From the sequence record PZ445488.1: a stretch of 64,000 nt of DNA; one strand, given 5' to 3'. The notes below the pieces were generated by a model that was not told the origin of the DNA, did not search any database, and saw nothing but the letters and a program-made list of their open reading frames with translations. This stretch comes from a phage. The first letter of the stretch is position 1, and each line of letters opens with the position of its first letter. A program made the position numbers and the translations under genes. Below, piece by piece: positions 21,798-42,373 of this stretch.

Positions 21798-21923
21798 TTT
21801 ACCATACTCGTTTCAATAAGATTCACTATGCCGTTTACCATGTTATAAGTAAACATCGGATAATTGTATTGTACTACAACATAAGCGATAAGCAAAAGTT
21901 TCATTTTGTTCTCCGTTCATTTT

Positions 21924-21962
21924 GGTAGGACTACTATAACATAATCCTACCAAGATGTAAAC
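21924..21962 (-). promoter_or_regulatory. PeSL-like early promoter with stem-loop
   Basis: GTAGGACTACTATAACATAATCCTAC...GTAAAC on plus (GTTTAC -35 on minus). Confidence 0.45.
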
Positions 21963-28126: not shown

Positions 28127-28456
28127 TTATACTCTAGGCTTTTGAGCTTGTTTGGTATTGGATTCCCATGCGGCTTTGGTAATTTTGTTAGCGGCATAGC
28201 CAAAGGCATTAGATAGAACACCTTTAGAGTTGAATACATCCAATCCAATAAGTACACCTGCTGTGTTAAATTTAGGAGCAAAGTATGCATTAGTTTTAGA
28301 AAGAGCTTTTTTCAATTCAGGGTCTTGAACCAAGCCATCAAAAACGCCTTTACTATTTACTTTATATGTTACTTTGGGATTTTTACCTTCTTCGATAGCA
28401 GCTTTCTGTTCAGCAGATAATGTAACTTCAGTGATAAATTCTTGATACATTTTCAT
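28127..28456 (-). CDS. internal-protein-like protein with capsid-targeting N-terminus
   Basis: 109 aa; N-terminus MKMYQEFITEV resembles T4 internal protein CTS MKTYQEFIAE. Confidence 0.55.
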   Translation of the reverse strand: MKMYQEFITEVTLSAEQKAAIEEGKNPKVTYKVNSKGVFDGLVQDPELKKALSKTNAYFAPKFNTAGVLIGLDVFNSKGVLSNAFGYAANKITKAAWESNTKQAQKPRV

Positions 28457-28934: not shown

Positions 28935-29216
28935 CTATTTTTCTGAAGCGCCTGAAATATATTTTTCAAGACGTTGTTTCATTAACGAGCCGTTCTTAGC
29001 GATTTCTTCCGGTTTATCGCACATACGCAACAGTGCTTCAAGCTTAGCGATATCGCTGGTACGTTCAAATTTGCGAGTATCTATCTTACTGGCAAGTTCA
29101 GAAATACGTGCTAATAGACTTTCGGCTTCAACCAAAGCTGCACCTAGCTTAGTTGCAAATGTGTCAGTAGCTTCGTTAAGAATAGATTCTGATAAAAATT
29201 CACTATATGTTTTCAT
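28935..29216 (-). CDS. internal-protein-like protein with capsid-targeting N-terminus
   Basis: Start at ATG 29216 ([16 protein letters not shown]...), ATGA overlap with lysozyme stop. Confidence 0.5.
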
Positions 29217-31901: not shown

Positions 31902-31922
31902 AATATTCTCCTCATGTTTTAA

Positions 31923-31958
31923 TAGGACTACTATAACATAGTCCTATCAGTTTGTACA
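31923..31958 (-). promoter_or_regulatory. PeSL-like early promoter with stem-loop
   Basis: TAGGACTACTATAACATAGTCCTA inverted repeat around -10-like element. Confidence 0.45.
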
Positions 31959-33477: not shown

Positions 33478-33484
33478 TTGTTTT

Positions 33485-33523
33485 GATAGGACTACTATAA
33501 CATAGCCCTATCTTGTTGTAAAC
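33485..33523 (-). promoter_or_regulatory. PeSL-like early promoter with stem-loop
   Basis: GATAGGACTACTATAACATAGCCCTATC...GTAAAC on plus. Confidence 0.5.
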
Positions 33524-37229: not shown

Positions 37230-37856
37230 TTACTTACGAGTTTTTGCATACTGAGCAGCGTCAGCAGCCAAACGACCTGCTTGTCGAAGTTTTTCTTTAA
37301 TCTCATCATGAAGTGGTTGAGTATACTTCAAACCTTCGATAGTCAAATAAAGACGATAAAGGTCTGGGGTATCAAGGTTGTTGATATGTTGGCCATTACG
37401 AAGACTATTGAATTCACGAACGAGTGAAGATGTATCAGATTCAATATCACGAACAAGCGAAGATAGTTGTTTATATTTTTTTTCCAGGCTAGAAGTATCA
37501 AACTTAAGAGCAGGAGCTTTAGGAGTTGCTTTTACTTCCGGCTTAGGCTCAGGTTTTGCTACTGCTTTAGGGGTCGCAGGTTTAGGAGTGGTAGGAGCAG
37601 GTTTTACTTTAGGCGAACCAGATTTAGCAGAAACACCACCACTAACAATATCTTTGAATGCTTTAGAAGCTCTGTAATATTCTTTTTGGCTGGAAGTGTC
37701 GATACCGTACATGGCTTGAACGTTTTTGAAAAACTCTGTACTAGTTTTTGTACCAGAAATAGCATCGTAAGCAGCTTGCCATTTCTCTTTTGTCATACGT
37801 ACACCGGCTTCGGTGATTACTTCCGTTTCGGCTAAAAATTCATTAAAAGTATACAT
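37230..37856 (-). CDS. internal-protein-like protein (CTS-like N-terminus, Pro/Lys-rich linker), late-promoter driven
   Basis: 208 aa; N-terminus MYTFNEFLAETEVITEAG; PKPATPKAVAKPEPKPEVKATPKAP low-complexity linker; TATAAATA upstream. Confidence 0.55.
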   Translation of the reverse strand: MYTFNEFLAETEVITEAGVRMTKEKWQAAYDAISGTKTSTEFFKNVQAMYGIDTSSQKEYYRASKAFKDIVSGGVSAKSGSPKVKPAPTTPKPATPKAVAKPEPKPEVKATPKAPALKFDTSSLEKKYKQLSSLVRDIESDTSSLVREFNSLRNGQHINNLDTPDLYRLYLTIEGLKYTQPLHDEIKEKLRQAGRLAADAAQYAKTRK

Positions 37857-39348: not shown

Positions 39349-39639
39349 TCACCGTACCATATTAATGTAATTATATTCAATGCAACGTAATTTCAAAGGA
39401 TTCTTGAAAATATCATATTCAAGAGGGCCTTTTTCTGTTTCAATAAAGAAATCAAAGTTAACTGTGTTAAATTTATCATCTTCACAGAGTAATTTAACCT
39501 GTGAAGACGAACGGTCAATGTAAACCTTTTCAACTTCAAAATATGTTAAAATGCCATAATCATCGACTAGTGCTTTAGCTGCACGTTGATCGCTTTCGTA
39601 TCCATTCTCGACAGATTTTACTTTAGCATAAAGAATCAT
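39349..39639 (-). CDS. hypothetical protein
   Basis: 96 aa ORF, ATG start. Confidence 0.45.
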   Translation of the reverse strand: MILYAKVKSVENGYESDQRAAKALVDDYGILTYFEVEKVYIDRSSSQVKLLCEDDKFNTVNFDFFIETEKGPLEYDIFKNPLKLRCIEYNYINMVR

Positions 39640-39998
39640 GAGTGTTCCACCACTTCAAAGGTATGAGCATCAACAATATGATACCAGTCAAAATTTTCTT
39701 CTGCGTTTTTATAAATTTCGCGAAGAGCTTCAACAGTTTTTCCTGTAGCAACAAGGTCGTCAATACCACCAAGAGGATAACAGTCATAACCAGCAAACAG
39801 AAGGAAATTAATAGTTTCTGTAGGTTCTGGATGCAAAACACCATTATCATCTACCACTTCAAAGAAAGTGTAAGAAGGAGTACAAGTTTTAATCCAGGCC
39901 CATGCTTGAGCTGCTGAATCAAACGGATTACGGAATAAACGACAATCCGGGTCTTTAGAAGGATTTGCTTCAAAATCCGCATATATGTGATATTTCAT
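39636..39998 (-). CDS. hypothetical protein
   Basis: Track start is TTG; in-frame ATG at 39998 with AAGGTGAG SD. Confidence 0.45.
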   Translation of the reverse strand: MKYHIYADFEANPSKDPDCRLFRNPFDSAAQAWAWIKTCTPSYTFFEVVDDNGVLHPEPTETINFLLFAGYDCYPLGGIDDLVATGKTVEALREIYKNAEENFDWYHIVDAHTFEVVEHS

Positions 39999-39999
39999 T

Positions 40000-40206
40000 T
40001 TACTCACCTTTTGCAATTTTATCCATAACGATAGCGATTAAGCCGATTAGAAATGCTACTACCAATGAGATAGAGTTTTCAGTTGTTGTCAGTAGTCCAC
40101 AAATGAATCCTACAAACATCGAAAAACTAAAAGCCATTGAAGCAATTACTACAGCAACATTACGAATCAGTTCAGCGCGTTTCATTTTATTTCTCCATTT
40201 ACTCAT
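40000..40206 (-). CDS. hypothetical membrane protein
   Basis: 68 aa, two hydrophobic helices. Confidence 0.45.
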   Translation of the reverse strand: MSKWRNKMKRAELIRNVAVVIASMAFSFSMFVGFICGLLTTTENSISLVVAFLIGLIAIVMDKIAKGE

Positions 40207-40213
40207 TTGATTT

Positions 40214-40249
40214 GATAGGACTACTATAACATAGTCCTATCATGTAAAC
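40214..40249 (-). promoter_or_regulatory. PeSL-like early promoter with stem-loop
   Basis: GATAGGACTACTATAACATAGTCCTATC + GTAAAC (plus); same core as 40542..40580. Confidence 0.5.
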
Positions 40250-40251
40250 TA

Positions 40252-40515
40252 TTAAATACCAGCTTCGCGTTTAACATAATCGACGTAAGCTTGGATAGCT
40301 TTCTTGCTGGTAATTTTTACCTGGCCTCGTCCGTTGCCTTCTTTAGAGTTTTTCTTAACAACTACATTACCATCTTTAACACCCCATACATGGACATAAG
40401 TACCGATGTTTCGGTCGTAGAACATTGCATGGTCGTTGTTGTAAGAGAATGATTCGTAGTTCTCTGACAGAGTAGAAGATTGAGATTCAGCGATAAATTC
40501 TTTATAGGTTTTCAT
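40252..40515 (-). CDS. internal-protein-like protein with capsid-targeting N-terminus (ipI position)
   Basis: 87 aa; N-terminus MKTYKEFIAES matches T4 IP CTS. Confidence 0.6.
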   Translation of the reverse strand: MKTYKEFIAESQSSTLSENYESFSYNNDHAMFYDRNIGTYVHVWGVKDGNVVVKKNSKEGNGRGQVKITSKKAIQAYVDYVKREAGI

Positions 40516-40541
40516 TTGTTTTTCCGTTTGGTTGTTGATTT

Positions 40542-40580
40542 GATAGGACTACTATAACATAGTCCTATCAGCATGTAAAC
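40542..40580 (-). promoter_or_regulatory. PeSL-like early promoter with stem-loop
   Basis: GATAGGACTACTATAACATAGTCCTATC...GTAAAC; minus sense GTTTAC-N17-TATAGT. Confidence 0.5.
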
Positions 40581-40583
40581 TAC

Positions 40584-40871
40584 TTACAGAAGAGTTTTTG
40601 CAATAATTTTAAGCTGAGCTACAGAAATATGCTTAGCTTTAAACAGTGCGGTCTCTTCGGCCGGAGAGATAACAACAGTAGCGCCATCTTTCTTAGCAGA
40701 CCATCCGTCCCCTAAGTAAACAGTACCTTTTACTTCTTCACCATCAACCAGACTAATCATCGGTTTACCCTCACGTCCTTTATTTGCTTTAATAACTTCG
40801 GAAGTAAGGGTTGCTTCGGTCAGAGTAGAAACGTTAGCAACAGGTGATATAAATTCTTTATAGGTTTTCAT
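40584..40871 (-). CDS. internal-protein-like protein with capsid-targeting N-terminus
   Basis: 95 aa; N-terminus MKTYKEFISPV. Confidence 0.55.
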   Translation of the reverse strand: MKTYKEFISPVANVSTLTEATLTSEVIKANKGREGKPMISLVDGEEVKGTVYLGDGWSAKKDGATVVISPAEETALFKAKHISVAQLKIIAKTLL

Positions 40872-40906
40872 TTTATTTCCTTGAGGTTGTTTATTTGATA
40901 GGATGA

Positions 40907-40935
40907 TAGTATCACACCATCATCCTTATGTAAAC
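40907..40935 (-). promoter_or_regulatory. PeSL-like early promoter with stem-loop
   Basis: GATAGGATGATAGTATCACACCATCATCC...GTAAAC. Confidence 0.45.
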
Positions 40936-40948
40936 TGTTTTGTGAAAA

Positions 40949-41634
<686 letters not shown>

Positions 41635-41638
41635 TTTA

Positions 41639-42373
41639 TTACCTTAAGATTGTTTCAATTTTAGAATAAAGCTCTTCTAAAGAGCCGTCGTTTGTAATAA
41701 CTAAATCGCCTTCTTCAATAGGCAACCCAGCTTCTGTAATATGTTTATCGGTGGATTCCGTACCAGAGCGAACCACATGAATAACTGTAGCACCCATCGC
41801 TCTAGCGGTTTCCATTTCATGGACTTGGCGTGTATCGGTTACAACATAGTAATCGAAATCACTTCCAATATAATCCATATAATTTAATGCAAAAAGTTTA
41901 ACCCAATACATACGGTCAAATAAATTAACGACAACATCCGTACCGAGGGCTTGCATAAGACGGCGGATTGACCATGTGTCGTTGATATTATTTATAGCTT
42001 CACGCAGGGCTTCATATGGTTTAATATCTAGATATGAATATCCACCTTCTAACGATGATAATACTTTAACATTATTAATTGGTAAATATTGACTTTGTAA
42101 ATAAATTAGCGCTTCTTCCAATAATTCAATAACATCCAACTTATTGAGATTTAATGGTGTTTCACGGTCATATCCAACACCTTCAAAGTATTCGTATTTC
42201 AACTCGGTGAATACGTTGGGGTTTTCAGCATGTTTACGCTCCCAGGCTATTGCTAGAGCGTCTTTAATTGGATATGCCAATTGGTATTTTACGGATTTAA
42301 AGTTTGAATTGATGTAATCAGCAGTAGTGTCTTTACCACTACGTTTGATGCCACTTAAAAAGATTAGCTCCAT
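41639..42373 (-). CDS. 1: deoxynucleoside monophosphate kinase gp1
   Basis: 244 aa; P-loop SGIKRSGKDT; T4 gp1-like. Confidence 0.85.
   Translation of the reverse strand: MELIFLSGIKRSGKDTTADYINSNFKSVKYQLAYPIKDALAIAWERKHAENPNVFTELKYEYFEGVGYDRETPLNLNKLDVIELLEEALIYLQSQYLPINNVKVLSSLEGGYSYLDIKPYEALREAINNINDTWSIRRLMQALGTDVVVNLFDRMYWVKLFALNYMDYIGSDFDYYVVTDTRQVHEMETARAMGATVIHVVRSGTESTDKHITEAGLPIEEGDLVITNDGSLEELYSKIETILR

Follow-up and report, generated by a model that had tools for sequence, protein, structure and literature searches.

Two small minus-strand genes at positions 40252 to 40871 of a 64,000-nucleotide stretch of phage DNA (PZ445488.1; referred to below, at its full length, as the window) encode proteins which share an N-terminal leader of the T4 capsid-targeting sequence (CTS) type. 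As judged from homology and position, the upstream open reading frame (ORF), ORF-B, is the ortholog of ipI, the internal protein I (IPI) gene of T4, and as such is an already known gene that presents nothing new. The downstream frame, ORF-A, is an uncharacterised addition to the known class of CTS-tagged internal-protein cassettes, and what is new about it is the origin of its body, which sequence homology places in a family of early proteins that lack a leader. We consider it likely that ORF-A is packaged, processed and injected, most likely as an anti-defence protein, and that it originated and is shuffled as a cassette in the manner set out below.

Two genes with capsid-targeting leaders at the ipI locus

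ORF-B (40584..40871, minus strand; 95 amino acids) starts with MKTYKEFIS (MKTYKEFISPVANVSTLTEATLT...), and ORF-A (40252..40515, minus strand; 87 amino acids) with MKTYKEFIA (MKTYKEFIAESQSSTLSENYES...). The two genes open with the same 23 coding bases (ATGAAAACCTATAAAGAATTTAT), and this pattern occurs exactly twice in the window, both times at these genes, where shuffled sequences lead one to expect 0.01 occurrences. BLASTP comparison of the two translated products aligns residues 1-18 of ORF-A with residues 1-19 of ORF-B (12/19 identical), while no alignment is found beyond the leader. In T4 (NC_000866), the IPII and IPIII proteins both start with MKTYQEFIAE, and IPI starts with MKTFKEFTSTTTPVSTITE, followed by the mature sequence ATLTSE.... 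The likeness of both N-termini to the T4 capsid-targeting sequence is real and not due to chance. Suppressor analysis has mapped the critical CTS positions, with Y4 and F7 involved in targeting and I8 and E10 in processing, and the ten CTS residues alone have been shown to be enough to package foreign proteins in T4, where the prohead protease gp21 has the specificity L/I-x-E (PMC9026906). Sites of this form are found in the leaders of both ORFs, in line with the initial annotation, which had reported two frames starting with MKTYKEFI(A/S), had read their N-termini as T4-type capsid-targeting sequences clipped by the prohead protease, and had placed them at the ipI position.

The position is borne out by comparison with related genomes. 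The partial record of Escherichia phage CEV1 is 100% identical to positions 40000-41000 of the window and to the flanks at 39500-40200 and 40950-41650, and complete Mosigvirus (RB69-like) genomes, such as those of phage 55, LH01 and JK45, show 95-99% identity over the same stretches. On these sequence comparisons, the phage is a Mosigvirus (RB69-like T-even) and the locus is the ipI hyperplastic locus, here with two promoter-plus-gene cassettes. The gene order in the window, trna.4 - ORF-A - ORF-B - 57B - 57A - gene 1 - gene 3 - gene 2, is collinear with the order trna.4 - ipI - 57B - 57A - 1 - 3 - 2 in T4. ORF-B, which lies between 57B and trna.4 as ipI does in T4, therefore occupies the ipI position, and ORF-A represents an extra gene between ipI and trna.4.

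The initial annotation had described the mature bodies of both proteins as resembling nothing recognisable. For the 95-amino acid product this does not hold, as residues 20-95 of ORF-B match positions 1-76 of the 76-position Pfam profile PF11634 (IPI_T4; Bitscore: 168.4 against a cut-off of 25; e-value: 3.2e-50), and chain A of PDB 2JUB (IPI*) aligns through its residues 1-76 with the same residues of the query (71/76 identical; e-value: 8.2e-42). The full precursor shares 83 of 95 residues with T4 IPI. The sole L/I-x-E site in ORF-B, L17-T18-E19, directly precedes the mature A20, and its T4 counterpart is I17-T18-E19, likewise followed by A20. The IPI precursor (40584..40871, minus strand) is thus divisible, on the Pfam and 2JUB alignments, into a predicted propeptide comprising residues 1-19 (MKTYKEFISPVANVSTLTE; 40815-40871) and mature IPI* comprising residues 20-95 (40587-40814). 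ORF-B shares its length, locus and a 19-residue propeptide ending in L/I-T-E with T4 IPI/IPI* (PF11634, 2JUB), which inhibits the GmrSD type IV restriction enzyme of E. coli CT596 (PMC3012670, PMC12373910). By extension, its propeptide would be cut after LTE19 to yield an IPI* which, once injected, would inhibit a GmrSD enzyme of this type. Of the two products, the 87-amino acid ORF-A alone is uncharacterised, and what it has in common with T4 IPI is limited to the locus and the style of the propeptide (12/19 identical).

The leader of ORF-A appears to be composite. On leader alignment, its CTS (residues 1-10, MKTYKEFIAE; 40486-40515, minus strand) matches that of T4 IPII and IPIII at 9/10 positions, with Q5K as the sole change and with Y4, F7, I8 and E10 all kept. 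Residues 11-18 (SQSSTLSE; 40462-40485, minus strand) form a spacer which is similar to the last residues of the IPI propeptide (VSTLTE) and contains a second potential cleavage site, L16-S17-E18. This site and I8-A9-E10 are the only L/I-x-E sites in ORF-A, with none present in the body. Taken with the point at which homology to other proteins begins, they delimit a predicted mature body of 69 amino acids (residues 19-87; 40255-40461, minus strand). ORF-A thus keeps the I-A-E cleavage site of the T4 IPII/IPIII sequence MKTYQEFIAE (Mullaney and Black, as reviewed in PMC9026906), but differs from these proteins in its additional eight-residue, IPI-like spacer with a second L-x-E site, in its unrelated body, and in its location at the ipI rather than the ipII-ipIII locus.

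When six ORF-A orthologs were compared at the DNA level, residues 1-10, L16 and E18 were found to be invariant. Four of the six distinct amino acid changes fall at positions 12-17 (Q12E, S14F, T15A and S17T), and the differences in the 69-residue body are almost all synonymous. This substitution pattern is that expected for a spacer, residues 11-18, which is discarded between two protease cuts, and suggests that the mature protein would start at N19. In the record of phage NHEP36 (L017 441-764), the start of ORF-A is annotated 60 nucleotides further upstream, giving a 107-amino acid product that reads through the upstream promoter element; this is probably a start-codon mis-call which hides the CTS at the true N-terminus.

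The ORF-A body and its leaderless homologs

By tblastn, full-length homologs of ORF-A with 95-100% amino acid identity were identified in 29 records of Mosigvirus-like phages, where they are invariably annotated as hypothetical. Residues 16-87 match phrog_13302, a family of unknown function (e-value: 2.2e-37), while no Pfam or PADLOC match was obtained for ORF-A. Searches of PDB sequences with ORF-A and with the family profile returned chance matches only, for example to a WD-repeat-like 'VWD' motif and to an ankyrin designer protein. Word-indexed protein searches recovered few relatives of the body, and the wider family was exposed by tblastn seeded with a distant member. Homology between ORF-A and this family begins at approximately residue 15-19, and the relatives lack the leader. 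A 73-amino acid homolog, 63% identical, is located between gene 52 and motA in the Dhakavirus phages IME08, IME341 and AnYang, and further homologs of 67-72 amino acids are found in Klebsiella phage pzk-kv8, Shewanella phage Thanatos-1, the Aeromonas phages Aes012, 25 and phiAS4, and a metagenomic T4-like contig. In the six leaderless homologs that were read, the ORF opens directly with the body, in-frame stop codons are present just upstream, and a sigma-70-like early promoter precedes the gene.

Members of the body family share 29-66% identity with ORF-A, as well as the motifs HAMFF, Y(I/V)HVWGV, VK.N and KK. Residues M13, V25, V35, N38, K53 and K54 are invariant, and every full-length member keeps H11. 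The family is basic throughout, with isoelectric points (pI) of 9.0-9.7; the mature body of ORF-A has a pI of 9.4, contains 11 K+R against 7 D+E residues and has a mass of approximately 7.9 kDa. An AlphaFold2 (AF2) model of full-length ORF-A built on a three-sequence alignment was unusable (pLDDT: 45.8), whereas that of the body, built on an alignment of eight sequences, was predicted with confidence as a beta-sheet-plus-helix structure (pLDDT: 92.3; pTM: 0.79) and agrees closely with an independent model in BFVD (TM: 0.99). Foldseek comparison against BFVD retrieved only the body's own family, and comparison against the PDB yielded no match below E = 1. Modelling thus indicates that the ORF-A body is a real folded domain. 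The leaderless proteins (65-73 amino acids in IME341/IME08, Aes012, phage 25, pzk-kv8 and Thanatos-1; all annotated as hypothetical) have the body, predicted fold, basicity and early promoter in common with ORF-A, but are without a CTS or propeptide and are sited in other accessory regions, namely between 52 and motA, between gp60 and rIIA, and after dexA. It is on this basis that the body of ORF-A is assigned to a family of leaderless early proteins.

Neither in sequence profile nor in structure does the mature ORF-A body resemble IPI*. Distant homology of the body to IPI* was rejected, as profile comparison with the IPI* family revealed no relationship (hhalign: 0.2%). The anti-CRISPR protein AcrIF13 is an acidic DNA mimic. 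It shares 7% identity with the ORF-A body, and Foldseek does not retrieve its structure (PDB 7FI4) as a match; ORF-A, by contrast, is basic, and the resemblance is a generic beta-sheet-plus-helix likeness which does not speak for a common function.

A shortened member of the family was observed in Pectobacterium phage PM2 (L008 2010-2153), where the body homolog comprises 47 amino acids only. The sequence upstream, in the frame of the annotated ORF, encodes the family N-terminal motif FHFTRADSVNLSHA up to the start codon, with a stop codon before the motif and no start codon between the two. As the motif is encoded upstream of the annotated start without a start codon of its own, the PM2 copy looks decayed, N-terminally truncated or mis-started.

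Promoter-early stem-loops and exchange of cassettes

T4-type phages carry mobile regulatory cassettes known as promoter-early stem-loops (PeSLs; Arbiol et al. 2010, PMC2839356; PMC4122927), in which the early promoter of the PST/T4 type follows the consensus TTTACW-N17-TAYWAT (Comeau et al. 2014, PMC4122927). As had been proposed in the initial annotation, each of the two genes is preceded by its own element of this type, a sigma-70-like promoter which overlaps a 12-bp hairpin. The PeSL upstream of ipI (40895..40936, minus strand) consists of TTTACA-N17-TACTAT (40934->40906) over the hairpin AGGATGATGGTG/TACTATCATCCT (-16.6 kcal/mol; z: -3.9), and that upstream of ORF-A (40535..40584, minus strand) of TTTACA-N17-TATAGT (40579->40551) over the hairpin GATAGGACTA/TAGTCCTATC (-18.8 kcal/mol; z: -4.6). 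A third PeSL, upstream of trna.4 (40207..40253, minus strand; -17.5 kcal/mol; z: -4.6), constitutes the second of two direct repeats which bracket the ORF-A cassette. All three share the arrangement TTTACA-N17-TA(T/C)(A/T)(G/A)T with a 12-bp hairpin and the -10 box in the loop, and the PeSL of T4 ipI is built in the same way, although the sequence of its stem differs. On either side of ORF-A, the two copies agree at 100% identity in a 36-nucleotide core (40535-40570 and the copy before trna.4) and define a repeat unit of 328 nucleotides.

Allowing up to three mismatches, five PeSL copies are present in the window, against none expected. Three of them, copies of GATAGGACTA...TAGTCCTATC with one to three mismatches, are found at 21923-21952, 31920-31949 and 33484-33513, read on the minus strand, each in front of a small ORF on that strand (starts at 21904, 31901 and 33477, respectively). 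The copy at 21923 carries paired changes on both arms which preserve the stem. The elements of the window match the PeSLs described in T4-type phages in promoter consensus, hairpin overlap, dispersal and location at indel boundaries. Their 'terminator' half is, however, not evident, as no T-run (U-tract) follows the hairpins and a terminator scan returned no sites, and the leader codons common to the two genes appear to serve here as a further substrate for recombination.

That the ipI locus is polymorphic has in outline been described before (Repoila et al. 1994, cited in PMC12373910 and PMC3012670), and the initial annotation had overlooked both this cassette-array nature and the leaderless homologs of the ORF-A body. 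Among Mosigviruses, at least six states of the slot between 57B and trna.4 can be distinguished. It holds IPI only in mar005P1, IPI and ORF-A in the window phage and phage 55, IPI and Ip7 in Shf125875, ORF-A only in ST0, Ip7 only in p000v, and Ip7 with a fourth, 87-amino acid cassette starting MKTFNEFISE in G2285 and ECO111 5-P. In a four-way alignment, mar005P1 has a single PeSL where the window has PeSL-ORF-A-PeSL, corresponding to the 328-nucleotide repeat unit. The promoter and ribosome-binding site of ipI lead straight into ORF-A in ST0, with the junction falling within the 23 nucleotides of shared leader codons and a repeat unit of 356 nucleotides. As the indel junctions lie in the PeSL and in the leader codons, both of these repeats appear to be used as recombination substrates.

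The McrBC inhibitor Bas37_0260 and the Ip7 protein of RB15, the latter as attributed to Repoila et al. (1994), have the locus, the CTS leader and small size in common with ORF-A, and Ip7 and other cassettes interchange with ORF-A in close relatives (IPI with Ip7, Ip7 alone, and Ip7 with the fourth cassette). The leader is, however, the only similarity among the three proteins. The body of ORF-A is a different one, and tblastn found ORF-A only in the 29 Mosigvirus records, alongside the leaderless homologs. The fourth cassette (minus strand; L011 753-1016 in vB_EcoM_G2285 and L013 756-1019 in ECO111 5-P) continues from MKTFNEFISE with SSGVKINK..., and its body, which is annotated as hypothetical or not annotated at all, is unrelated to those of IPI, Ip7 and ORF-A.

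Proposed role of ORF-A and alternative explanations

We propose that ORF-A originated through the joining of an internal-protein propeptide, composed of an IPII/IPIII-type ten-residue CTS and an IPI-like STLSE spacer, to a basic beta-sheet-plus-helix protein of approximately 69 amino acids which is found leaderless as an early gene elsewhere. Its own early promoter would drive synthesis of the protein, probably together with late read-through, for which the late-promoter consensus TATAAATA inside gene 1 (41989..41996, minus strand) is a candidate source, with transcription extending over 57A-57B-ipI-ORF-A. This sequence occupies the equivalent position of gene 1 (dNMP kinase), in the codons of a conserved INNI motif, in the window phage, Shf125875, ST0 and T4 (L014 5006-5013). 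Residues 1-10 would bring ORF-A into the prohead scaffolding core, and its packaging is likely. The gp21 prohead protease would cut after IAE10 and LSE18, and the mature protein of approximately 7.9 kDa would be kept alongside the DNA until it is injected when the virion next infects a cell. In the host it would most likely bind and block, by stoichiometric inhibition, a defence protein which acts before phage gene expression, the precedent being a modification-dependent nuclease. Cassettes of this kind would be gained, lost and reassorted by recombination between PeSL repeats and between shared leader codons.

The precedents come from the internal proteins for which targets are known. Ip1, Ip2 and Ip3 inhibit distinct GmrSD enzymes (PMC12373910), and Bas37_0260, encoded at the ipI locus, inhibits McrBC (bioRxiv 10.1101/2025.11.20.689424). 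An anti-defence role is the likeliest function of ORF-A because all four internal proteins with known targets (4/4) block type IV restriction with narrow specificity and because the locus adjoins Acb1, and, by this analogy, such a role has a nearly even chance of being correct.

Several points weigh against the proposal as a whole. A literature search found no virion proteomics or genetics for ORF-A and no Mosigvirus virion proteome which mentions it, and its packaging and cleavage therefore rest on sequence motifs. The leaderless homologs show that the body can work unpackaged, and the leader of ORF-A might therefore be dispensable. Head assembly requires a late-phase supply of internal protein. 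No late promoter is located directly upstream of ipI or ORF-A, the TATAAATA sequence lies in a coding region and its count across the window is at chance level, and the ribosome-binding site of ORF-A (GGA at approximately -11) is weaker than that of ipI.

It is conceivable, albeit unlikely, that ORF-A is packaged without a specific defence target, as a small basic internal protein for DNA charge neutralisation, condensation or ejection. The pI and the excess of K+R residues (11 against 7 D+E) of its mature body would suit such a function, T4 internal proteins, at approximately 1000 per head, are known to touch DNA phosphates via lysines (PMC3012670), and many Mosigviruses dispense with ORF-A and have other cassettes in its place. 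However, distant T4-like phages retain the same body in an early gene without a leader, and it cannot be part of the head there. The fold of the body is furthermore well defined and conserved, and its invariant positions include non-basic ones (M13, V25, V35 and N38), unlike a low-complexity basic sequence, and a specific target has been found for every internal protein tested so far.

The invariance of the first ten residues, L16 and E18 among orthologs which differ elsewhere in the leader, together with the retention of all four experimentally critical CTS positions, makes it quite improbable that the leader is a recombination scar with no targeting role and that the protein is early and cytoplasmic only, absent from the virion. 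As ten CTS residues suffice for packaging in T4 (PMC9026906), a protein which bears an intact CTS and is present during head assembly would be expected to be packaged. In favour of a passive origin, recombination within the leader codons does occur at this locus, as in ST0, and could give rise to a chimeric N-terminus, while ORF-A has its own early promoter and its homologs function without the leader. That ORF-A is a chance ORF between two PeSL repeats, as its invariable annotation as 'hypothetical protein' and the lack of a Pfam family might suggest, is already effectively refuted by the 95-100% amino acid identity with mostly synonymous differences in 29 phage records, the homologs at 29-66% identity in other genera, and the confident fold prediction.

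Under the preferred explanation of a packaged and injected protein, ORF-A may, more tentatively, represent a natural case in which a composite IPIII/IPI-type propeptide, grafted onto an ordinary counter-defence (or host-takeover) protein of the early cytoplasmic kind, has turned it into one that is pre-loaded and injected. If so, a new and widespread family of small inhibitors would be defined by the relatives that lack the leader, found in Aeromonas, Klebsiella, Shewanella and Dhakavirus phages, and the tagged version would reveal a target that acts before phage gene expression. RB69 DNA carries arabinosyl-hydroxymethylcytosine. One possible target would be a nuclease which recognises the modified DNA of RB69-like phages. 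As every one of the four T-even internal proteins whose targets are known blocks a different type IV restriction enzyme, each uncharacterised ipI-locus cassette, ORF-A included, may serve as a ready-made probe for an as yet unidentified host defence specificity. ORF-A offers a clear construct, the mature form 19-87, with the leaderless homologs as a natural control. It also provides sequence-level evidence for the portability in nature of the capsid-targeting tag, which has so far been demonstrated mainly by engineering. To a specialist ORF-A may be unsurprising, yet as a candidate it is well defined and lends itself readily to testing, in an area that is currently active.

The cassette array is bounded by two conserved flanking genes. 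The downstream flank is a trna.4 homolog (40000..40185, minus strand), which encodes a 61-amino acid small membrane protein (phrog_1692; e-value: 2e-32) and is annotated as trna.4 in relatives and in T4. The upstream flank, 57B (40949..41404, minus strand), is located as in T4 and encodes the anti-CBASS phosphodiesterase Acb1 (Pfam PF23474; e-value: 6.5e-59), so that the ipI cassettes adjoin a second counter-defence gene directly upstream of ipI. In many phage records, 57B is still labelled as 'RNA ligase' or hypothetical.

CTS-like N-termini and L/I-x-E sites were also observed in three more ORFs of the window, none of which has a Pfam match. The first (28127-28456, minus strand) encodes a 109-amino acid protein starting MKMYQEFITE... 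(phrog_3966; unknown), the second (28935-29216, minus strand) a 93-amino acid protein in which the leader is followed by SILNE... (phrog_3499; 'internal head protein'), and the third (37230-37856, minus strand) a 208-amino acid protein in which MYTFNEFLAE is followed by TEVITE... and a Pro/Lys-rich middle region (phrog_2280; unknown). With these three ORFs, the phage encodes at least five candidate internal proteins.

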